DNA of 64,000 nucleotides from Mytilus californianus. Its lineage: Eukaryota. Of the stretch, positions 6,096 to 58,480 are shown one piece after another. The stretch spans positions 43,276,001 to 43,340,000 of the forward strand of contig NW_026262679.1 in the NCBI RefSeq assembly GCF_021869535.1. The letters are read 5' to 3'. The number at the start of each line of letters is the position of its first letter. Position 1 is the first letter of the stretch. Position numbers and translations under genes: made by a program. Under the pieces are notes generated by a model, which worked only from the letters and a program-made list of their open reading frames with translations, ran no database searches and was not told the DNA's origin.

Positions 6096-6849
6096 ATGAA
6101 CAAGAAGAGATCTCCAAATTTTTCCGAAATCGAAATTCATATTATGCTGGCCGAAGTTAAAAAACATAAGGGAATATTATTCAGCAAGTTGTCAAATGTT
6201 GCGACAAATAATATTCAGAAGAAGACATGGGATGGCATTTGTACAAAGATGAATTCTTCAAATACCCACCACCAAAGAACATTTCGGGCCGAGTGGTCTA
6301 AGTAGTTACTACTGTAATCACTAGCCAGTCAACACTGAGGTTGTGAGTTCGAACCCCGCTCGTGCGGGTGCACTCGACTCCAATCTTAATTGACTAGGAT
6401 TGTCAGTTTTCCTATCGAAGGTCGGTGGTTTTCTCCGGGCATTCCGGCTTCCTCCACCAATAAAAACTGGCGGCCACGAATTAGCCCAAAAGCGGTGCTT
6501 AAAAGTGGCGTTAAAACACCAAAAATCAAAAAAATCAAACCAAAGAACAGTTGAAGAAATTCGGAAGAAATGGACAACGTATACGAGCAACGCAAAAAAG
6601 AAAGTGGCACACAATAGACGTGAGGCAAGAAAGACAGGCGGAGGTCCTCCCCCAGAAGACATTTCCTCGATGGAAGATCAGGTGGTAGGGATTATTGGAG
6701 ACACACCTATAGATGGAATAGACGGAGGTATGGATACAGCCTCTTTTACAGAAACATCAATGGATTTGACAATGCCTTCATGTTCATCTTCAAGAAGGAG
6801 TTCCTACTCTTCAGCAGACGAAACAAGTAATTTGTTTATTTTCTTATAG
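6096..6849 (+). pseudogene. Harbinger Myb/SANT-like DNA-binding protein, interrupted by a SINE
   Basis: KKRSPNFSEIEIHIMLAEV...KKTWDGICTKMN...RTVEEIRKKWTTY...TGGGPPP. Removing the SINE plus one TSD copy restores the frame (HHQRTVEEIRKKW). Confidence 0.9.
6282..6538 (+). mobile_element. tRNA-derived SINE with V-domain-like core, 11-bp TSD ACCAAAGAACA
   Basis: A-box-like GGCCGAGTGGTCTAAG, B box GTTCGAACCCC, core GGTTTTCTCCGGGCATTCCGGCTTCCTCCACC, AAATC-type tail; TSD at 6271-6281 and 6539-6549. Confidence 0.9.
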
Positions 6850-7275
6850 TTCTTGACAGAGCGAAAAGGGGGGGGGGATGACGACATGATTGGTTCGACA
6901 TTATTCTTTTGAATTGTACTTTCCATAAACTTTAAGTATTATCTAATGAACTATCATGTTAAAAATCCGGCTCATCGTGCCTGTCTTTGCACTTTCTCCG
7001 GTCGTGATATGCTTGTAATGTTTTCCACTGGAGGTTTTTTTTTTTGCCATGTCTTTGTCAGTTTGTTTTCTACTTGTGAGTTTGGGTGTCCCTTAAGATT
7101 CTTTCTGAGTCCTTTCTTTTACACCTATAAATTGGTAAATTCCTTTGTACCACCAAATGAAATTTTATTGGTTACATGTCAGTGAGACAGTCATCCATGT
7201 ATCAGAATACAAGAATAAATGCAATGAACGACCCATAAGTGATTAAAAAAAGAAGGATAAGAATATGTTTTTTTA

Positions 7276-8326
7276 TTAATTGTAGAATCTATTATTAACC
7301 AATCTTGTACGAATAACTGCACCGTCATTTTGAATACCAATATATTGCTGCCCACCAATATTTCCATGATCTGTTGGATTATCGTTTCCTGGAGGCAATG
7401 GAATTCTATTGTCAATGCACATGTTGTGCAGAACAACAACATCTACTACAATGTCACAACATCTATCTGGGCTGTACAACAATGTTCCTGCAGTGGTATC
7501 GATACATCGGAACCGAGATTTCATCACTCCAAAACTCCTCTCAACAGCACATCTTGTTCTCATATGGGAACTGTTGTAACGTTGGTCCCGTCTTGTTGTT
7601 GGGTTCATGACTGGTGTTAGGAGCCAAGGTCGAAGGGGATATCCACTGTCCCCAAGAAGCCATCCATCGCTTATGTCTCCGTCTTCAAACATTTCACATA
7701 GCCTTGAATTGCGCAACGCAAATGAGTCATTTGTACTACCAGGCCACTTAGCCACTATGTTTAAAAACTTCAAGTTCAAGTCACAAACTCCCATTACATT
7801 AAGCGAGTGGTAATTCTTTCTGTTTACGTTTAAGTGTTCATCAACAGCTGAGCTTTCGATACGCACATGAGTACCATCAACAGCACCAATAACATTTGGA
7901 AAATTTGAAATGTCATAAAAACCTTGCCTTAAGAGATGCTTGATCTGTGGGCATCGAAATGTATTGATTGCAAACATTTTTTAAACATTGTGTGACGTCA
8001 CGTGTAATATTCGAAACACTTGCTCTTGAAATACGATGGACATCAGCATTAACCAGTTGAAAGCTCCCAGTTGTATAAAATCTTAAGGCTACCATTATTT
8101 GTAATGGCACAGGAATTGCATGGGACCTTTTAGTCGGCCTAGCGAGCTCATTTTGAAACATTCCACAAAGTTCTAGAATCTTTGGTCTAGAAAGTCAGTT
8201 TAGTCTATATTTACGAACAATATCAGCATCGTCCAAATAATCTAATGGATTGTCTCTGTCCCTTAACACTCTGTTTCGGCGAATGTTATTCGCTCGTCGT
8301 CTTACATGAACATACACAGCGGCCAT
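7276..8326 (-). pseudogene. Harbinger (HARBI1-like) DDE transposase, two frameshifts
   Basis: ATG at 8326 (MAAVYVHVRRR...RDRDNPLDY), then IMVALRFYTTGSFQ, GAVDGTH, WLLGDSGYPL and RCAVERSFGVMKSRF. Frame breaks near 8195 and near 7930-7950. Confidence 0.93.
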
Positions 8327-16449: not shown

Positions 16450-18020
16450 TTAGTTATGTTTTAATCTGCTGATGACAAAATCGATATTTGTGCCAATGTA
16501 AACTATATTCAAAGATCTAATTACAACATTGGTAAGATAACCTTTACTTATAAGTTTGTTTAAAGGTTCGATGAGTTTACACGGATTACATAGTGATTTA
16601 CGCGCTTTTTGTACAATATTATCGTAAAATTTAGGATGTGAAATACCGTTTTTAATAAGTTTTCTACAGGTACAGCCAAATTTACTAATCAAATATTTGT
16701 ATATATGAAAGAATTTAGTAAAAGTTTTAAGCAATTTGTGGTAACGAAATCCCTGACTTAATAATTTACCAGTGATGCATTGATTACGTTCGTTAAAATC
16801 TATGACATCACTACACACACGGGCATAACGAACGAGTTGGGATATATAAACACCGTATGATGGAGCCAAAGGAACATCGCCGTCTAAAAAGGGAAAATTA
16901 ACAATAGGGAATGAAAAATCGTCTCTTTTGTCGTAAATTTTAGTATGGAGTTTCCCTTTAAAAATTGAAATGTCTAAATCTAGAAAAGGACAACTACTGC
17001 TGTTTATGTTAGATTTATTTAAATTAAGTTCCTTTGGGTAAATTTCGGTCGTATATTTAGAGAACTCTGGATTATTTAACGAAAAAATATCATCAAGATA
17101 ACGGTAGGTATTGTTGAATGTATGATCAACCAAATGTAACAATGACGTGTCTTTACTGGGTTTGGTCATACACTGAGATTCATAGCAATAAAGGAATAAA
17201 TCTGCTATTAAAGGGGCGCAGTTAGTGCCCATAGGATTACCTACTACCTGTCGAAACATTTTATCGCCGAAACGTACATATATGTTGTCCAGGAGAAAAT
17301 TTAAAGCTTCAATCATATCTTCACATTTCCAGTAAGTGTATCTAGCATACTTTCTTTTTGTCGTTACAGAAAAAGCTTTAAACGAGTTACAGCAAATAAA
17401 TTTGCAATGAGATTTTTCAAAAGACCATTTATTTAAATATGAAAACCTTTTCTTGATAAGATTGTGTGAAAGTGTAGTGTAGAGAGTAGAAAAATCATAA
17501 CTGTCAACAGAATTAAAAGGACCATCAAAAGCACGTTTTTTATCTAAAACCTCTAATGATTTTTAAACACTCCAAAAATAGTTAATACCTTTATTTTCAT
17601 AAGCTTTATTACAAAAGTTAATAACAAGTTCTTTGATAGTAGCAAGGGAGGTAGTTAGAAGCGCTGACAGATTAATAGTAGCACACTTACTAGATGCGGA
17701 GATGAAACGGAATTTAAATGGTTGTTTGTGTAATTTAGGTAACCAGTACATAGTCGGGACTTTCAAATGTTCGGAAGAGGCTTTAAGCTGGGTAGTGGCA
17801 GTGATATGCTTGTTTACAATTTGACTCTCTGTGGAGCGTACGGACCTGAATGTAGAAGAACGGATAATTTCGTTTTGGAGAACTTCCGTGTAGTATATGC
17901 GTCACACCACCACTACATTATTGGCGGCTTTGTCTGCCGATACGAACACAAACCGCTTTGCGAGTACTTGGAGTTTATTTTTTTATTCTAGAAATGGGTA
18001 TATCATGGACCCTATTATTA
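16450..18020 (-). pseudogene. PLE reverse transcriptase with in-frame TGA (17902-17904, candidate Sec), one TAA (17563-17565) and a frameshift (~17983)
   Basis: FVFVSADKAANNVVVV[TGA]RIYY, MYWLPKLHK, DFSTLYTT, GNPMGTNCAPLIADLFL, RYLDDI, FLDLDI, YDKRDDFSFPIVNFPFL; a single frame runs from 17982 to 16450. Confidence 0.9.
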
Positions 18021-21000: not shown

Positions 21001-21026
21001 GTAATAATTAATTGACAGGAAACATT

Positions 21027-22800
21027 TATAACCGGGCGTTTTCCGTGTTATAGTAATTCAAAGACGGAATACCAATACTTTAAACTTTATTAGCAAGGTC
21101 CGGACAGTACCAGACCTAAGACCTAAACTGACTACAAAATAACATACAAAAGCATATATAGAAAACAGTTACTATAGCAAAGGATTAGTGTCCAAAGGAT
21201 TAACTTGTCATCGTCAGAGTTATTTCCATTACGACAAACATATATTTAACAATAGAATTAATTAAACACAAAGAAATGTAAAAGGTTTGATGAACGGATT
21301 AATAAATTGTCACTATAGCACTTAAAATATATTGTCGGAATTAGCTTTATTTCTATTTCACATTTGTCCAAATCTTCCTGGTTATATTCGCCACTACTCC
21401 ACCTAAACTCGGTCTCCGAGTTTGCCGAATGAATTTTGTTATCGTCGTGGGTATCCTCCTCCTCGCCGATGACGTTGCTGCGAATTGCCACGCGAGCAAA
21501 TTGCAAGGGTCGAACGCACATCTCGGTTTGAATGTTTTATATCTAGATGTTGAATCTCGTGTCTACTGTTTACGTTCCAGTCTTCCTTTAGTCTCTGAAT
21601 TTCGTCTTCCATATCATTTAAGATGCGATTGTACTGCATGTCAGAATTTTTGAACTCCATTGTTAAGCGTTGTCTGGTGTTCGTTAAATTTAGGTTTTCC
21701 TCTTTCAGTTGAACTATTACTCTTTCCAAATGTTCATTTCTATCTGTATAACCACTTAATTTCTTTTTCAAACTTTTTAGTTCGACTTGTATGTTCGGCT
21801 AATTCATGTTCGATCTTTTGAATTATCCGGCCATGTTCTAAACGTTCCAAATTTAATTTGTCCAAACTGTCACTCAACATTACATTATCTTTCACTACAG
21901 TATCCAATTTAGAATTTTCACACTTCAGCACAGCGATTTCTTTGATGAAGTTTCGGTTAGACACTTTCAACTTGTTAATGTGTAGTTTCGCGGATTCGTC
22001 CTGTATGGAGCACGTAAAAGCGGAGAGTTCCTTGTCCTCGAGTTCTTGAAACGGAAATTGAGACATTTGTTTCTTCTCAATAAACGTTCTCATTCGGTCG
22101 CTGTCTCTTTGAATTTTTGACTTTGATTTCTTCTTCGGTTTTGGGTTTTCACACGACTTAACGTGAAAACTACACATACGGGCAAAATGTCCATGATGTC
22201 TGCACTTGTAACAATAAGCGTTAGCTGCATAACACCGATGGTAGGTGAAAACGTTCAATGTCTTACCACAATATTTGCACAGAAAGTCCAAATAGGTATC
22301 TGCTTTTCTCATCGGAAACGGATGTCCATTTCTGCAAGGCTGGTAATTCCAGGTTCCTTCCATATAGTTGCTTCTAGAGGTATGCATTACTAGTTTGGGG
22401 GAACTAGCTCAAATTCGTGCCGCGGGTACCTCAACCAATATATAACCGGGCGTTTTCCGTGTTATAGTAATTCAAAGACGGAATACCAATACTTTAAACT
22501 TTATTAGCAAGGTCCGGACAGTACCAGACCTAAGACCTAAACTGACTACAAAATAACATACAAAAGCATATATAGAAAACAGTTACTATAGCAAAGGATT
22601 AGTGTCCAAAGGATTAACTTGTCATCGTCAGAGTTATTTCCATTACGACAAACATATATTTAACAATAGAATTAATTAAACACAAAGAAATGTAAAAGGT
22701 TTGATGAACGGATTAATAAATTGTCACTATAGCACTTAAAATATATTGTCGGAATTAGCTTTATTTCTATTTCACATTTGTCCAAATCTTCCTGGTTATA
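21027..22800 (-). mobile_element. Small non-autonomous LTR retroelement (1774 bp), two identical 360-bp LTRs, 4-bp TSD CATT
   Basis: 21027-21386 equals 22441-22800 on base-by-base reading; LTR termini TATAACC...GGTTATA; CATT at 21023-21026 and 22801-22804; PBS-like TGGTTGAGGTACC from 22437 and AATAAA in the LTR, both on the minus strand. Confidence 0.9.
21439..22387 (-). pseudogene. CCHC zinc-knuckle plus long coiled-coil protein (~315 aa if a 1-nt frameshift near 21800 is repaired)
   Basis: CKYCGKTLNVFTYHRC and CYKCRHHGHFARMC (CX2CX4HX4C). ORFs 21740..22387 and 21439..21771 join as ELA/NIQVELKSLKKKL heptads. Confidence 0.7.
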
Positions 22801-23091
22801 CATTCGTGACTTATTTCTTCATTTGAAATTATAATAAATATGCTTACAAAACTGTATAAGGATACAAAAAATGACCAACAATTATTAAATCAATTTTCCT
22901 ATAAAACAGTCTTATTTTACGAACCTGCCATTTAAAAAAAATGCACGCAATGTAGAAACTAAACCGATCTGAGGCCTACTTATAGTTTTAATTTGATATG
23001 TATGTAGATTTCAAAGAGAATGCTAGCATATTTCAGATGGTTATGAATTTTCAACTTTAATTCGAACTAAATCAGCTATATATTTGATCAA

Positions 23092-23510
23092 TAACAAGAA
23101 TGTGTCCATAGTACACGGATGACCCACTCGCACTATCATTTTCTATGTTCAGTGGACCGTGAAATTGGGATCAAAACTCTAATTTGGCATTAAAATTAGA
23201 AAGATCATATCATAGGGAACATGTGTACTAAGTTTCAAGTTGATTGGACTTCAACTTCATTAAAAATTGCCTTGACCAAAAACTTTAACCTGCCCACTCG
23301 CACTATCATTTTCTATGTTCAGTGGACCGTGAAATTGGGGGTCAAAACTCTAACTTTGCATTAAAATTAGAAAAATCATATCATAGGGAACAGGTGTACT
23401 AAGTTTCAAGTTGATTGGACCCCAACTTCATCAAAAACTACCTGACCAAAAACTTTAACCTGAAGCGGGACAGACGGACGGACATAATGCCACTAGGTGG
23501 GGCATACAAA
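23092..23510 (+). mobile_element. Helentron/HINE-type element with two 170-bp units, GACG microsatellite and 3' palindrome
   Basis: AACAAGAATGTGTCC start; CCCACTCGCACTATC at 23123 and 23293; GACAGACGGACGGAC; ATGCC-ACTAGGTGG-GGCAT end. Confidence 0.8.
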
Positions 23511-27918: not shown

Positions 27919-28927
27919 TTAATACACTCTTCGTCTTATCTTGTTCCGTCTCCTTAATGCTCTACCTATACGTGCTCTACGTAACATTTGAGGACCTACT
28001 CGATAAGTGCCTCTGTGATTCCTTGGTAAAATCGTGTACGTGTCCATCATACCAGCAGACATATGTAATCCTAAATGACAATGAACAAACCACGTTCCTG
28101 GATTATCTGCAAACATTTCTACAGTTTCATATGATCCTGGAACAACACCAATTACATCATCCCGGAAAGATGACGCGGAAGTTTTGATAAAAGTTTGTCC
28201 ATGAAAATGATTTGAATGTACACCATTGGAGTTACCAAATGAGTACGTGTACCATGCTATTGTATCTCCTTCTGTCATTTCTAGGTTCGGTATGTTAGAA
28301 AAAATAAATCCATTAATACTAAACTTATTATTAGATTGTTGGAAAATTGAGTCATCCAGATAAGTCCTGTTCGGTGCTCTTTCTCGTACATTCTCGTCAA
28401 AGTAATGGCTGTTAGCTTCAATGAATATAACAAACGCTAACGCAAATTCTTTGTTTGTTTTGTCCATTCTATTGCCATAAACATCCAAAACACCTCTTTT
28501 ACAAATAAGTAGCGGTCCAATCAAACCCGTGGCAATACCCTTATGAGGATAAACAGGCGAATTATATGGATATCCAACACAGTTAGGCTCATTTCTACGA
28601 GGACCGGATCGTTCTGGAACTAGCCATCTGTAAATTTTCACATCTCCTGGTTTTACACCATTTCTTAAATGTTTAGACATTTCATTATCCAGTGGTAGAT
28701 TCTTCAAGTATATAGAATTATCAAAAGACGCCATATTTTTGAAAACTACTTCAATGACGTCTCCAACTGCTGCCTTAATGAATGGTCCAAGTATTCCAAG
28801 ATGGTTATCTTTTTCTGTACGCTGTACCTGTTTTGAAAATGATGCATCAAAGAATTCCCTGTACACAGTCTTTTTATACTGTGTGCCAATAAACGTGTCC
28901 GTATTACGAACATAAAGATTCCCCGGC
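27919..28927 (-). CDS. Multicopper oxidase (hephaestin/ceruloplasmin-like), terminal exon: domains 5-6 plus basic tail
   Basis: Acceptor TTTAG at 28928; HLGILGPFIKAAVGD, GLIGPLLIC, HSNHFHG, WFVHCHLGLHMSAGM; stop at 27919; 1+1008 nt fits the phase-2 junction. Confidence 0.95.
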
Positions 28928-29297
28928 CTAAAATAAAAACGTCATGTTAAAGTACAATTGGCATTCTTTATAAATAATCAAATTTACAATATAATCGGTG
29001 ACTGAATAGACAAAAAAATTATTAAAGCACTGCTGTGTCTATTTATGATTGTTTCTTTGTAAAACGTCATTATATTATCTAATTAACATTGTTTTTTTTT
29101 CAAATAAATTGGGATCTAAGATATCAATATTTGTAACCAAAACCAATCAGTCATCATATTCTAAATTATTTTTCCCTAGCAGGTATAGTTTTTGGACATC
29201 TTCAAATCTAAATAGGTTGCCTACTTTAATGCACATGCACAGGTTTTTTTAAATCCATTTATCAATCTCAGTAGTCCGATAATATCACCCTACTTAC

Positions 29298-30750: not shown

Positions 30751-33700
30751 CTAAGGAAGATGTTTGTATATAAAATTACATATTATTTTAAGTAACTCAA
30801 CATTTTCTACACTAAATAACCAGATAATTTTGCTTTGACTGTTCATATGATTAAAATAAGAATTATATTGTGCAATACTAGCTAACATACAATTTCTATC
30901 ATCCTCAAATTTGTTACAATCAAATAGAAAATGAGCCTCATCTTCGACAGTATTGGAAGAACATTTATTACATATTCTGTTAATTGGGGGAATACCCTGA
31001 TATCTACCTAATTCTATTTGTAATCTATGAGAAGATACACGTAATTTAGTAAAACTTCTTCAAGTTCAAAATTCTTGATCAATGTTAGATATTTTTCAAA
31101 ACCAAAATTTGTTTTATATAAAAGGTAGGTTTTCAGTTTACTGTCTGAAAATTTATCTATTTGATTTTTCCAACAGCTAATAAACAATATTGATAGCTTG
31201 GTTTGTATATATTTCTTAAATTTGTATAAGGATTCACAAAATGGAGCATTTATGGCATTTGTATAGTCAATACCAAGTATTTTAAAAACAACATTTATTG
31301 AACCATACCATGATGTTATATTCATGTGATGTAGTGTCTTTGATTGTGTATATGCCTCTTTTAATAGAGGAAAATTATTACCTAAATTCTCTAATCTATA
31401 CCAGTACAATAACATTCCTTTTATAATATTAAAATATATTGGAAATCTTCCAAGTTCAGATAACACTGCAGCATTTGTTGTTTTCTTGTGTACCCCAAGT
31501 ATAAATTTACAAAATTTTATATGAAGTTTCTCACAGGGTAAACCTGAATATAATTTTTCAAAAGATATATCTTCCTTCTTACATTTAGAGGAAAGAGAAT
31601 TAAACATCCCCCATATTTCGCTACCATATAATAAAATAGGTTTTACAGTGTGGTCAAAAACATGAATACTTGTTTTTACATCAGGATTAAGTGATAAAAG
31701 ATCTTTCCTTAATTTGAAATGAGCTTTCAGGGATTTTTTGTATAGTTCATTTTGAGCATAACTGAATGAACCAGATGAGCTTAAATATAAACCTAGGTAT
31801 TTGTATTTTGAAACACATTCCAGATTTATATTCTGAAATGTGAATATCTGTTTTACATGTCTGCCTGCCTTGTTGAAAATCAGCACCTTTGTCTTATTAG
31901 TATTCACATTGAGACACCAATCTTTGCAAAATTTATCAAGCATTCCCAGCTTTTCTCGTAGTCCTTCAGCTGATGTAGATAATAAAACAATATCATCAGC
32001 ATACATTAAACAATGTAGATCTTTGTCATTGACATTAACTGGGTCTCTAGTATCTGACAAATATCTGGGCAAATCATTTATGAATATCTTGAATAAATTC
32101 GGACTGAGGTTGTCACCTTGTTTGACTCCAATATCTAATGGGAAAAAATCACTTACTTGATTTTGAATTTTGACACATGATTTGCTAATTTCATGCATAC
32201 TTTTAATAATGTTATCAAAATAAGACCCAGCCCCAATATCTAGTAGTTTAATCTTGATCCCTGTATGTATAACAGTATCAAAAGCCTTCTGAAAATCAAC
32301 AAAACAGGCAAACAGTCTACCTTCTTTTGAATTACAGTATTTGTTAATAAGACAGTTTAAAATAAACATATGATCTGCAGTTCTGGCTTTCCTTGTGAAT
32401 CCAATTTGACTATCATGTATAATATTATGTTCCTGAAGAAATTTGTCCAGTCTTAGACTTAATATTCTATTAAAAAGCTTTCCAATTGCACTTGTTATTG
32501 TTATTCCTCTATAATTGTTAGGGTCACTTGTATCGTTGCTTTTAAAAATTGGTGTAATATAACCTTCAGCCCAAGATGTTGGGTATATACCTGAAGACAG
32601 ACAAGTATTAAACATCTGTTGAAAACTTTTTAAAAGGAAAGTCTGTCCATTCTTTATCATATTATTACTAATGTTATCCAAGCCTGATGATTTATTGCAT
32701 TTTAAGTGTGAAATGGCTTTGGATATTTCAGACTCAGTGATAACGGAGTCCAACTCGTTGAAACATTTTGAGTTTTCTAACTGTTTCAGTTTTTCACATA
32801 GCTCTGTATATCTACTTTGAAATTCACCTTTCAGTTGTGACAACTTTTGGAAATGTGATATCAAAGTTGATGGTTGTACTCCACATTTTTTTTTAGTTTC
32901 ATTTTTTTCCTGTAGTTCATTAATTAAGTTCCAATACAGTTTTGGATTCTCTTCGTGCAAGGAGTCCAGCTGACTAATCAATGATTGTTTGTATTGTTTG
33001 TATTTATATTTCCTTAGTTTGGAGTATTCACGATTCAGTTTATAAAAGTGATTTTTGATAATTGGATCATATGGAAATCTTGAATAAATTTTTCCATAAT
33101 TAAGCAAGTTAGTTCGAGCTTGTTGTAAACTTGCGTCAAACCACTTTTTGTTTTTTTGTTTGTTTGTGTGTTTTTTTAAAGGTCGTTTAAGTGATAGATT
33201 TGCTGCTGATAAAAAGATGTTTGAAAGTTTTGATTATGCTTCATCTACTGATGTCTGAGTAAATTGAATTGTGCTGTTGTTGAATTCTAGTATGTAGTTT
33301 TGTAGTGTATCTGAAGAAAGTGTTTCTTGAAATTTTATTGCTGAACAGTCAGTCCAGATATAATTAGGTGTCATATTTTTCAACTGGATTGGAATATCAT
33401 TTTCTCCAGGAACACAATATTTTGCAGATAATTCCCACTCAAGTTTACAATGACAATCAGATAATGTGGGAATAAATCTGGATACTTTAAAATACAGTAC
33501 ATTTTCAAGAATTTCTTCCGACACAGCAACATAATCAACCACACTTGCACCATTGGGGGTATAGCAAGTAAAATTACCAAATGTATCACCAAGAACTCTG
33601 CCATTTAAAATTCTTATTTGTTTACTAATGCAAAAATCCAAAACTTCTTTGCCTCTTTGATAAATTTTTTGGTCTCGACTTTTTCTTGTCATAATGTTTT

Positions 33701-34274
33701 TGTCAGTAGGGTATGTATCAAAAATTGGAGTAAATTTTGAATCATCGTTTACTATAAAGTCATTTTCAGAGCCTATTCTGGCATTAAAATCTCCACATAA
33801 CAAAATTTCACCCATTTTTTTATACTGAAAGATATCTTTTTCTGTGCATTCAAAAACATCAGAAGAGAGTTCTTGGGTATATTTAGACGTAACAGGGGGG
33901 TTGTACAGTACACAAATAAATAGGTCACTTTTAAATCCAAAAAAGGATTTTTCTAATTTAATCCATTGATAATCTGGATTACTGTTAATCAATATTTTGA
34001 CATGAGGTTTAACGTGACTTTTCTGTAGAATTGCTATACCCCCAAAATGACGGTTATTATTTGATAATTTTCTACATATTGGATGATAATGAAATTTACC
34101 AATATTGTGTATTTGGGAATTATATCCCACATGAGTTTCGACTAAAAAAACAATGTCGTAATTCTCTATATGTTTCAGAAAAAGGGGATCCTCTGCTTTA
34201 TTCATGCCCTTTGAAAATAAGCCACCTATATTCCAATAACCAAATTTTACAGATGATTGGTTTGATTTTGGCAT
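30751..34274 (-). pseudogene. LINE ORF2: APE endonuclease + reverse transcriptase + C-terminal Cys/His finger; one in-frame TAA (33234) and a 1-nt deletion (~31057)
   Basis: YWNIGGL, LVETH, GDFNARIG, VVDY, SDCH; NYRGITITSAIGKLF, VDFQKAFDTV, GVKQGDNLSP, MYADD. The frame stays open across the TAA. Confidence 0.95.
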
Positions 34275-34873
34275 TTTGGTTGATACAATTAAATCTGGTA
34301 TAAATAATAGAATAGATTTTCTATCTATAAAAAAAAAAATAATAAAAATTTGTCTCTAAATAAAAGGAAGAGACAACAAGGAAAATATTCAGAAATGTAA
34401 ATATTTGAAATAAGTAGATTTATTTAGAGGAAAGTTTTTACAATGGTTTTCTAAATACAAATAGTCTATGATATAATGACAGATAATTTCTTTTCTATGT
34501 ATCCTCTTTTAACTGAATAACTATTAAACTGATTTGGGTTGAATAACCTGATATCCTGGGTTAATTCAAGATCAAAAGTATGATTCAAATGTGAAAACTA
34601 AAAATAAAAATGAATAAAATAAAATAAAAAAGGCGAACTTTTATACCTAGCAGAGGTTACATATATATGACCATGTAATAGTGTGACTTCTTCACATAAT
34701 GGCTGTTTCATTTGAAAAATCTATTCAAATGAGAATATGAATTTATCAGCCCAAAAAAAAGAAGAAATATATAAAGTTGTACATGTATATATAAATTATA
34801 TGTAAATGACTTTAAACATGTTAAAGGAAGTCAACATAATGATATGGTAATATGTATAATATTAAAAAGCAAG

Positions 34874-36040
34874 TTATTCATGATGACCTCTGCCACGTCC
34901 ACGTCCACGTCCTCTTGTGTTGTGCGATTTGGATCTACCTCTTGAATTTGGCATGGGAATGTTTAAGGCAGTGTGTATTCCACGCTTTAAGTTTGCCGAT
35001 AGCTGAGACACGCCAGAGTCAGAGAGATGAAATTTATCTTCACTTAGTAGCTCTGCAATTGGGTTTCCATTTCGCAACATATTGCCATGATCAACAAGTA
35101 GAACATCTTTATTGTCATCATATATTTGTTTCAACAAGGCATTTATGATTTGTCCATTTGTGTTGAAAATTACACTGTCGAGTCGAGGAGTAGTAAGAGA
35201 GATGATGCAACCACTATTTTGCCATTTTTGAAGTGCAAGCTTGACAATATCTTGTATTTCTTCTACACATTGCTGTGGTGATTTTATTTTCAAATCATTC
35301 GTCAGGGAATGAAACACTACTAGATTTGGAATTATATCCGATATCTCCAAAATAGCTTGTTTAGTTTCTTCTAAATTTAAAGCAGTAACCTTATTGGTTG
35401 TAAATGATGGCGATAGCTTCTCTGCATTGATACGTTTGGTATTGGATGTACCAATTAAAATAATTGTTGGTTTGTTATCAATGTCAAGTTTAGATTTGTC
35501 AGTATATTTCGTGTCTGCATTAACAAGATGAAAATCTTCAAATCGAGAAATCATTTGGGAGCGGAGAGAGATATTTTCTTCTTGTAATTTCTCCAAGTGT
35601 TGAGTATGTCGTTTTAGAGTATCAGTTAGTTTGTCAATTTCTTCATTTTTGGTTTGTAGGCTTACCGATAGAAAGTCGATCTCAGAGTTTGAAGTAGTTA
35701 ATACCTTTTTCATTTCTGCTCTAGTCTCCTCCAGTATTTGATTGTGACATTTCATTTGATCTTCATGTTGAGCTTTAATTAACATAATATTGCTTTGCTC
35801 GTGTTTTAATTTAACTTCCAAAGTCTGTTTTTCTGTTTGTACGGTTTTATATTTTAATTGTAATGTTGATATCTCATTGTCGTCTTTTCTACCTTTTCCC
35901 AAGACTAGAACATCATCATTGCATTGTTTAACAGCAGTTAATACTTTGCTGAAGTTTTCATTGTGACTGTGTTCTATTTTAGCCAGCGTGTCAACTAAAT
36001 TTAATTCAAGCCTTTGAAAATCATCTTTTTGAGGTTGATC
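34874..36040 (-). pseudogene. LINE ORF1: coiled coil + SGNH/esterase-like domain + RG-rich tail (5' end damaged)
   Basis: IILIGTSN, VVFHSLTNDL, IISLTTPR, DKFHLSDSG, RGRGRGRGRG. The frame is open upstream of 35902 to a TAA near 36043. Confidence 0.8.
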
Positions 36041-47664: not shown

Positions 47665-48940
47665 AGTGGTGACTGGCAGTAACCCTTCACATAAGCTTTT
47701 ATCCTCGTGCTGTTCGCACACAGGAACTGTAAATGATAGACCAAGGTCCGGAAGACCTTGTTTAACTACCCGTTGTGATGACAGACTGGTTATTCGTCGT
47801 GCTAAAGCCAACCAATTTACTCCTGCCCCCAGCTTAGACACCACTGGCCTCCAGGAGGTCGTGTTAGTGTTCGAATATTGGTCCGTCGACTTCATAGAGG
47901 CAACCTAAGAGCACGTCGTGTTGTCAAGAGACCGGCTCTAACAGCGAGGCACTGTATAATCAGGTTTCAATGGGCTAATGACCATCGATGCTGGAACATG
48001 AGAAGCTGGACAAAAATTCATTGGTCAGATGAGAGGTTTCTGTTACGACCAGTAGACCCCAGAATACGAGTTTGGCGGGAAAATAAAACTGCCTATGACC
48101 AAAACAACATCTGCCTAACGACTGCATTCGGTGCTGGCAGTGTTACAGTATGGGGTTGCTTCTCATATCGTTGTAAGCTGGGTATGCATATTCTGCAGGT
48201 TAACATGAACGGACCGACATACAGGGATTTGGTGCTTAGAAACATTGTAGTCCCTCATTTTGATAATCACCCACGTGTGTCAAGACCCTTGTACATGGAC
48301 GACAACGCTAGACCACACAGGGCAAGGATTGTAACCGAGTACAAAGAGCAAGAAGCCATTGACACTATCTTTCGGCCTTCCATGTCTCCAGACATGAACC
48401 CTATCGAACATGTGTGGGATGCCATTGGCAAAAATCCCAATCGCAGAGATCCACCATTGCAAAATCTTGGCGATTGAAGAGTGGCAATAATTATTGTTGA
48501 TGCATGGAATAGATTTCCTCAATTAAAATTCAGAAGGCTTGTACAGCGTATGAGACGCCGTGTTATGGAACTATACCGGAAGAGAGGTGGTTACACATCC
48601 TATTGACTCAAATATTGACATTAAATTTGCCGAACATACCAAAGATTATTTGTAGAGAGTTTTATTGATATTGGGTGATTAATTGGTGTAAATAAAAATA
48701 AAATCACAGTGATACTTAAATTCCGTTTCTGATTTGTGTAATTTGCACTATTTCTATGAACGCAAAATACATAGAACCTGCATAAGTGACCAAACTTAAG
48801 TTTATGGTTTATTTATGGTGTATGCTAACAAAATTGCGACATGAATGTTTTCTCTTTTTTGAGGAATAACTGATTTTTTTAAATGAAAATAAAAATCGAT
48901 GCAATAAAAATAGGTAGTGCTTAACTTTTGGCGGACTGTA
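47665..48940 (+). mobile_element. Tc1/mariner (DD34E) transposon remnant; transposase pseudogene 47666-48606; right TIR plus TA
   Basis: DRPRSGRP, WSDE, VWGCFS, DDNARPH, SPDMNPIEHVWD (34 residues between D and E); frameshift near 47850; premature TGA at 48475; ends ...TTTTGGCGGACTG|TA. Confidence 0.9.
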
Positions 48941-57410: not shown

Positions 57411-58480
57411 CTAGTGATGGTAGGGACTCATTCTATGTTTTTTCATTAATGGGGAAACTGTCCTTAACTTCTTTATCCAAAAACTATTTCGCTTCGCCTT
57501 TTCTGTGTGTACTGTAATAGGTCATTGCGGCTGTTATTGATAGCACGCGTAAACCCTTTATCTATGTCCCATTAATTATAACCTCGTTTGGTAAAAAATC
57601 CGCGAAATAGTTCGGTTTGTTTTAACATACCATACCGTCTTTACTAACCTCTCCCGTTTAATCCGTGCCAATTGGCAGATTATTGCCAAACATCTAAAAT
57701 TATTCAAGATATTTCCCAAACCATCTGTATTAGCTTTTCGGAGACCAGCAAGTCTTATTTGTGAGAGCTAATGTCTCCTCTAATAAAAGCTCTTCAACTG
57801 CAGGATGGTGCAAGTCGTGTTGTAACAGACGATGTCTGACTTGCCAACAAATACTGAACACTCAAACATTTACTTGCCACTCCACTGGGTCCGTATACAC
57901 TATATATTGCAATGTAATCTGCAAAACCCAGAATGTGGTATACCTTCTTAAGTGTCGATGTGGCATTCAGTATGTTGGCGAGACAGACCAGCCATTCAAC
58001 AAACGCATGAATGGTCATCGAAGTGACTACACCTGCAAGCCTGACCTCCCCGTAAGTCGTCATTTGAGATCATCTGGGCACGCCCAAGTTGATCTCCAAA
58101 ACCTTTCTATCACTATTATAGACCACAACGAGGGTTGGTCAAGGGCCGACAGACTTGCTCGGAAAAGTTTTTGGATAAGGAAGTTAAGGACAGTTTCCCC
58201 AGAGGGCATTCATGAAATAAAATAGTAGAATAAGTCCCTACCATCACTTGTTTCCAGTAACTTTGTCTTCAGTACAGGACTCTTACAGTTTTACCTCCTC
58301 CCAAACATCAATATTGAAAAAAAATTACCAACGTATTGATTCTTGATAATTTGTATAACGATCAAGATTACTATTACAGTGTGAATACCACATGTCAAGA
58401 TAAGAACCATTTGACATCTTACTGATGAAGGATATTAGTTATCCGAAATATTTAATATTTGTTCATGTCAGATTGTATTT
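57411..58480 (+). mobile_element. Neptune-type Penelope-like element, 5'-truncated and 5'-inverted, with C-terminal GIY-YIG (to 58225) and pLTR
   Basis: RRCLTCQQI...NVVYLLKCRCGIQYVGET...KRMNGH...PVSRH...FWIRKLRTVSPEGI; inverted copy of the ORF end at 57411-57492. Confidence 0.85.
58411..58472 (+). ncRNA. Type I hammerhead ribozyme (PLE-associated, minimal stem III)
   Basis: TTGACAT-ctta-CTGATGA-a-GGATA-ttagt-TATCC-GAA-ATAT-tta-ATAT-T-tgttc-ATGTCAG. Core boxes intact; folded by eye. Confidence 0.75.

Follow-up and report, generated by a model that had tools for sequence, protein, structure and literature searches.

Small LTR elements encoding a zinc-knuckle/coiled-coil protein in Mytilus californianus and their candidate Gypsy partners

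TR-GAG and other non-autonomous LTR elements that retain gag are known from plants (PMC13570524). As described, TR-GAG comprises long terminal repeats (LTRs), a primer-binding site (PBS), a polypurine tract (PPT), and one gag-related ORF, without reverse transcriptase (RT) or integrase. In wheat, RLG_Quinta and RLG_Cereba form a pair in which the PBS and the ends of the LTRs are common to a chromodomain-type helper and a non-autonomous Gypsy partner proposed to contribute protein (PMC11302176). Small LTR elements that form tandem arrays are described from bivalves (TRIMs, biv-TRIM, and Helenus; PMC6934838; PMC10886601), and animal Helenus combines a 4-bp target-site duplication (TSD) with Gypsy dependence (PMC10886601). 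In addition, gag-pol-env elements have been described for a Ty3/gypsy clade with chromodomains from Cnidaria, Mollusca, and Annelida; the term 'non-autonomous' is absent from the main text on this clade (PMC13524379).

Here we describe a small LTR element (mini element) in a window of 64,000 nucleotides of Mytilus californianus DNA, together with its relatives. With LTRs, a PBS, a PPT, and one gag-related ORF kept intact in a class without RT or integrase, the mini elements resemble TR-GAG and Quinta, but no capsid domain was found. Whereas TR-GAG keeps a GAG domain, the mini elements have only knuckles, placed first and followed by a new helix motif and a long coil; their length of 1.4-1.9 kb and animal host also set them apart from plant TR-GAG (PMC13570524). 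As in Quinta/Cereba, PBS and LTR termini are shared with a putative chromodomain-type helper. Quinta, however, has clear GAG homology and half of its LTR in common with Cereba, while the mini elements show neither capsid nor long LTR homology, and unlike in the wheat pair a pol-only Gypsy clade exists beside them (PMC11302176).

Like TRIMs, biv-TRIM, and Helenus, the mini elements are small bivalve elements with tandem arrays, and they share the 4-bp TSD and probable Gypsy dependence of Helenus. TRIM and biv-TRIM are shorter than 1 kb and non-coding (PMC6934838), whereas the window element measures 1774 bp and its family has an ORF under selection. Helenus has a tRNA-derived LTR; in contrast, ARAGORN found no tRNA in L001, where the tRNA complement lies in the leader, and the primers reported for bivalve Helenus do not include tRNA-Ala (PMC10886601). 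Neither the mini class nor the pol-only clade was found described in the literature covered, most subscription journals being outside its scope; the families may be in Repbase.

The window element and its family

The element occupies positions 21027-22800 of the window on the minus strand. It is flanked by the TSD CATT at 21023-21026 and 22801-22804, a duplication that the original prediction had claimed. Exact repeat comparison of the 3′ LTR (21027-21386) and the 5′ LTR (22441-22800), both TATA...TATA, gave 0 differences over 360 bp, bearing out the claim of identical repeats with TATAACC...GGTTATA ends. The same holds for the claimed 1054-bp interior without protease, RT, or integrase, none of which was matched by the domain search of the two ORF frames. 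A PBS-like TGG had been placed inside the 5′ LTR; it actually lies 3 nt downstream of it. The PBS (22418-22437, minus strand), recognized by its complementarity to tRNA-Ala(AGC), is degenerate in this copy (4 contiguous nt paired). It is followed by a leader motif (22390-22409, minus strand) that is a partial complement of the tRNA-Ala 5′ end, and a PPT-like stretch (21387-21403, minus strand) adjoins the 3′ LTR.

The ORF of the window copy is split over two frames (222 + 119 aa) by a frameshift in an A-run near 21,760. The first frame (21740-22387, minus strand) runs from the ATG through the knuckles, the helix motif, and the proximal coil; the second (21439-21798, minus strand) holds the distal coiled coil and a basic Arg/Gly tail. 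The window copy is a recently inserted, frameshifted element whose LTRs, PBS, and PPT remain.

A DNA search of the 1.65-Gb genome with this family (family A) returned at least 54 matches, a lower bound given that 40 of 125 candidates were scored. Thirty loci were fetched, of which 16 are single full-length two-LTR elements. TSDs of 4 bp flank 15 of these 16, so other copies do have the LTR/TSD structure, and the LTR pairs are identical in seven. An intact ORF of 300-316 aa, from first ATG to basic tail, is present in 10 of the 16 copies; it is broken in five, including the window copy, and its start is altered in one. Tandem LTR-interior arrays occur at three loci. The family has spread in repeated waves, as shown by subfamilies at 97-99%, 86-87%, and 82-83% identity.

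An assembly duplication is ruled out by the genome matches and because every insertion has its own TSD, and a one-off deletion of a gag-pol element by the multi-copy family and by selection on the ORF (see below). LTRs, TSD, PBS, PPT, multiple insertions, and the lack of RT and integrase were all found, as in non-autonomous Gypsy-dependent LTR elements. The view of a young, non-autonomous element mobilized by Gypsy-type enzymes is supported by the copies with TSDs and by the likeness of their cis signals to those of a Gypsy family, H2. Evidence for transcription is weak: a portion of about 6% of a single RNA run covered the 3′ half of this ORF to a depth of at most 2.5, with reads that are oriented as sense RNA would be and include variants of other copies.

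Elsewhere in the window, a 340-aa open frame without obvious introns (27919-28941, minus strand) resembles a multicopper oxidase segment (hephaestin/ceruloplasmin-like), and remnants lie at 6394-7980, 16450-17562, 31014-36040, 47806-48477, and 57734-58225 (Harbinger-like, Penelope-like, LINE with ORF1 and ORF2, and Tc1-like); all were named by eye. Two copies of a 171-bp repeat at 23123-23462 showed an RNA depth of about 1,900-fold, mostly on one strand and from related copies.

A conserved protein in a multi-family class

Searches by PBS pattern and protein identified at least 11 divergent mini families in the genome (A, B, B2, and C-J), with LTRs of 360-900 bp, an interior of about 1 kb, and a single ORF of about 270-325 aa. 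TSDs of 4 bp were present in 8 of the 11 family representatives. Their ends are TA...TA in three, TG...TA in two, and TG...CA in six. At one site (L069:4500-4570; G000 C1:14.985 Mb), families C and B are fused head-to-head inside their primer-binding sites, and a copy of mini J sits within the env-like ORF of a Gypsy relative in L131.

The class extends beyond this genome. A profile of the N-terminal core matched 2570 proteins at E ≤ 0.001, many via knuckles alone. Among the 150 matches listed, 73 clusters at 50% identity covered the whole core and carry the mini design, all of them 376 aa or shorter. The closest named homologues (Mytilus edulis, M. galloprovincialis, and M. coruscus) reach at most 84% identity. 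Eight of the 30 clusters looked up could be named (three Mytilus species, Pinctada imbricata, and Tegillarca granosa), and the homologues span three bivalve orders. The best score in an Atlas search, 0.83, was uninformative. Longer fused forms of the protein were not found, in a weak search that also missed known members above 308 aa. The protein tree is mostly open, with 21 of 35 forks lacking resolution. The window element is one copy of a large, multi-family bivalve class, which had been missed at first reading.

The mini protein consists of a Gag-type knuckle pair, a conserved helix motif, a coil of about 170 aa, and a basic tail. The knuckle pair (aa 37-72; 22172-22279, minus strand) aligns to the nucleocapsid part of the Gag of Gypsy family H1 (HHalign 97.9%), to which it is homologous; outside the pair, the protein does not align to a Gag. 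Only one of the two knuckle-type Cys/His clusters scores in Pfam, and weakly (E = 0.074). The class-defining motif (aa 87-113; 22049-22129, minus strand), a basic linker followed by an RD..R helix and PF, has no Pfam match and is absent from all six frames of seven long elements. In an alignment of 59 sequences, the second knuckle, two arginines, and one proline were invariant. Residues 1-110 have a net charge of +15.

For a naturally open copy, AlphaFold predicted a helix at 89-108 and a continuous helix at 120-291, with pLDDT mostly above 90 (pTM 0.31) and low confidence for the knuckle region. The model contains no capsid fold, Foldseek returned no match to it at E ≤ 0.001, and Retrotrans_gag did not match any of four mini proteins. 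Thus, the lack of a capsid domain that had been claimed is borne out by Pfam, the AlphaFold model, and Foldseek. The claimed order of an N-terminal CCHC knuckle followed by a coil of about 200 aa also stands, although there are two clusters and the predicted helix is the shorter one given above. RNA binding and oligomerization, proposed for this protein, are supported as a predicted architecture.

In nine within-family pairs (non-independent), dN/dS was 0.20-0.42, with an upper bootstrap bound below 1 in eight; the exception was the closest pair. For the coil alone, values in those eight pairs were 0.24-0.43. Four between-family pairs were saturated and left out. The mini ORF, coil included, is under purifying selection. 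Between A1 and A2, dS was 0.59 in the coil and 0.05 in the N-terminus, which suggests coil exchange between these lineages.

Primer and candidate helpers

A match between the PBS and the tRNA set of the species, as sought in the original prediction, was found: tRNA-Ala(AGC) pairs with 18 of 18 contiguous nt of the PBS in the sister copy L005. Exact tRNA-Ala PBSs of 18-19 nt also occur in families B2 and E, in L031 and L078, and in pol163, a pol-only element (see below); recopying of the PBS from the primer would lead to such recurrence in separate elements. The PBS pattern search gave 95 matches compared with 9 in the control. These do not amount to a count of elements because many of the 40 fetched regions lack a 3′ LTR and belong to another repeat. 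The tRNA-Ala genes themselves lie in tandem arrays (about 1.37 kb) at G000 C120:1.45 Mb and C129:1.07-1.14 Mb, the former of which also contains tRNA-Asp.

The same genome contains three complete Gypsy families (H1, H2, and H3) that carry chromodomains and have TA...TA ends. TA...TA ends, considered odd in the original prediction, are shared by these and by pol-only Gypsy families, which rules them out as a unique trait; most mini families, moreover, end in TG...CA, as listed above. TATA LTR ends have been described in plant Copia elements as well (PMC9804982). H1 Gag carries a knuckle, and H3 Gag two. H2 has a 1659-aa Gag-Pol ORF with a chromodomain (L145), and one of its copies (L142) shows identical LTRs and a TSD. 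H3, the sister of H2 in the RT tree, matches mini F. Like the Ty3/gypsy clade mentioned above, to which they are likened by features, these families have C-terminal chromodomains and env-bearing relatives (PMC13524379). At eight loci (L169-L172, L174, L175, L180, and L181), Gypsy relatives carry a third ORF that is long and env-like, and several of them have a tRNA-Ala-type PBS. L031:1070-1940 is an H2-type LTR remnant in which an exact 18-nt tRNA-Ala PBS is joined directly to the PPT, with a 41-bp interior.

In its ends, primer, and TSD length, a Gypsy element of this genome agrees with family A. The PPT-LTR junction of H2 is identical to that of family A, including the window copy, at 29 of 34 nt, and H2 achieved the best end/PPT score (63-66; next candidate 43-45), a simple alignment score without a null for which 8 of many candidate families were compared. 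Long LTR homology of family A with any helper was not found, the likeness being confined to termini, PPT, PBS, and a weak 47-nt patch. The autonomous partner with the same LTR ends and PBS, sought in the original prediction, is partly recovered: H2 fits by its ends, PPT, and tRNA-Ala primer, and long LTR homology is absent. By these cis signals, H2 would be the likeliest helper of family A; the choice is ambiguous because pol167, a further pol-only element, has a 31-nt motif and nine terminal bases in common with this family.

We give about an even chance to the reading that family A is a non-autonomous, capsid-less, cis-acting RNA adaptor element using a Gypsy helper, with H2 the likeliest. 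The element would probably be primed by tRNA-Ala. Its knuckle/coiled-coil protein would bind its own RNA in cis, oligomerize, and deliver this RNA into the replication particle of the helper; a TA-ended chromodomain Gypsy, most probably H2, would then integrate it. A selected ORF in an element without enzymes most simply points to a benefit for the RNA that made the protein. A coiled coil and RNA-binding parts are likewise combined in a structural retroelement protein, LINE-1 ORF1p, which shows cis preference; given that no sequence or fold match was found, the parallel is one of function only. Against the adaptor reading count the ambiguous choice of helper, the lack of a null for the cis score and its restriction to eight candidate families, the thin expression (depth ≤ 2.5 over part of the ORF), and the absence, unlike in Cereba/Quinta, of long LTR homology with helpers.

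Pol-only elements and alternative readings

An RT search gave 151 matches; among the 20 loci fetched, four proved to be pol-only, and a fifth such family was found besides. These loci (L162, L163, L164, L167, and L203; G000 C154, C132, C1, C88, and C154, respectively) form a young clade with its own start codon. At four loci the ORF begins 191-673 nt past the LTR, with 41-65 aa ahead of the protease; there, no other interior frame of at least 150 aa was present, and no gag family, knuckle in any frame, or mini core was matched. Among 23 RT-RNase H sequences, these four pol-only elements are a single clade (support 99/98). LTR pairs were identical in all three elements checked, and a TSD was found in three of four. 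Open frames of pol-only lengths recur at other loci among the RT matches. Of 16 homologues outside this genome, 11 begin 52-54 aa before the protease and five are cut short; none has a knuckle. Splice-like donors occur in two of four pol-only leaders.

The mini and pol-only elements have complementary gene content, are both young, and share cis signals, and they may perhaps be halves of a split retrotransposon. The minis would supply an RNA-condensing knuckle/coil protein and the pol-only elements protease, RT, and integrase, so that neither would need a capsid element. We regard this as possible but doubtful; slightly less probable still is its full form, in which the mini protein replaces Gag in bivalves and reverse transcription takes place in an ORF1p-like RNP instead of a capsid. 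A split would account for the minis and the gag-less clade together, and the knuckle-less outside homologues agree with it. The C-terminal extension of the pol-only proteins is predicted to form three chromo-like domains, not a capsid, which also favors it; Foldseek found no match to the extension at E ≤ 0.001, and its weaker hits were chromodomains throughout.

Shared cis signals point the same way. The pol-only elements belong to the same tRNA-Ala group as the minis. The pol167 LTR shares its first nine bases with family A and holds the 31-nt match to the leader and start codon of older family A subfamilies. The 20-nt core of this motif occurred 65 times versus 0 in the control. Family-A type accounted for 37 occurrences and pol167 type for 28, and each of the 17 loci of the latter type that were fetched was a pol167 LTR. 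The TG-ended minis B, B2, C, D, E, and H scored best against pol163 in ends and PPT, in a comparison with only one complete TG-ended element.

Several observations speak against a split. The complete families H1, H2, and H3 are active in the genome with the same primer and similar ends and could give Gag to both partners, and the ends of family A are closer to H2 than to pol167. Few complete TG-ended families entered the comparison, tRNA complementarity explains part of the shared motif, and extended LTR homology was not found. In a DNA comparison at E ≤ 0.003, twelve further pol-only-type loci did not match any mini. A complex prediction for mini aa 1-150 with the pol167 extension, made without alignments, scored 0.01 and speaks neither for nor against a split. 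We know of no precedent for capsid-free LTR retrotransposition.

Alternatively, H2 could provide capsid and Pol while the mini protein opens tRNA-Ala as a chaperone, making the pair mutualistic. No zf-CCHC was found in H2 Gag (L145, L142, and L177), and H2 is the best cis match of family A. About 66 nt of the H2 leader after the 5′ LTR (L145 and L142) can pair with most of tRNA-Ala, which makes for an unusually extended primer site. The duplex of this leader beyond the PBS reaches −51 kcal/mol and was matched by 0 of 150 shuffles, as was also the case for the F and I leaders; pairing beyond the PBS was not significant for family A (74 and 51 of 150 shuffles) or for pol162/pol164. We nevertheless consider this mutualism unlikely. 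The sister family H3 has two knuckles yet matches mini F, the coil and the other mini families are left unexplained, and many Gypsy Gags function without knuckles.

A still smaller probability attaches to a restriction factor, i.e. a mini protein that acts as a poison of Gypsy particles and is maintained by selection on the host. A dominant-negative effect is conceivable for a truncated, Gag-like protein, and conservation over three bivalve orders would fit; however, the copies are dispersed, young, and often broken, and a poison would impede the spread of the element itself. Selection is visible between replicating subfamilies; because it runs along replicating lineages, it argues for a benefit in cis and leaves the restriction option of the original prediction unsupported. 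Finally, a neutral remnant of a deleted gag-pol element, although consistent with the Gag-derived knuckle pair, is highly improbable given dN/dS well below 1, a design common to 11 families and 73 clusters, and a helix motif missing from the long elements.

The mini class is old and still spreading, and in bivalves its members are annotated as 'CCHC-type domain-containing' or hypothetical host genes. Neither the minis nor the pol-only clade conforms to the usual gag-pol package. Should the mini protein prove to be a cis-acting packaging adaptor, it would illustrate how retrotransposon parasites gain entry to particles. Should it stand in for the Gag that the pol-only clade lacks, LTR retrotransposition could proceed without a capsid, and the boundary between LTR and LINE-type replication would be blurred.
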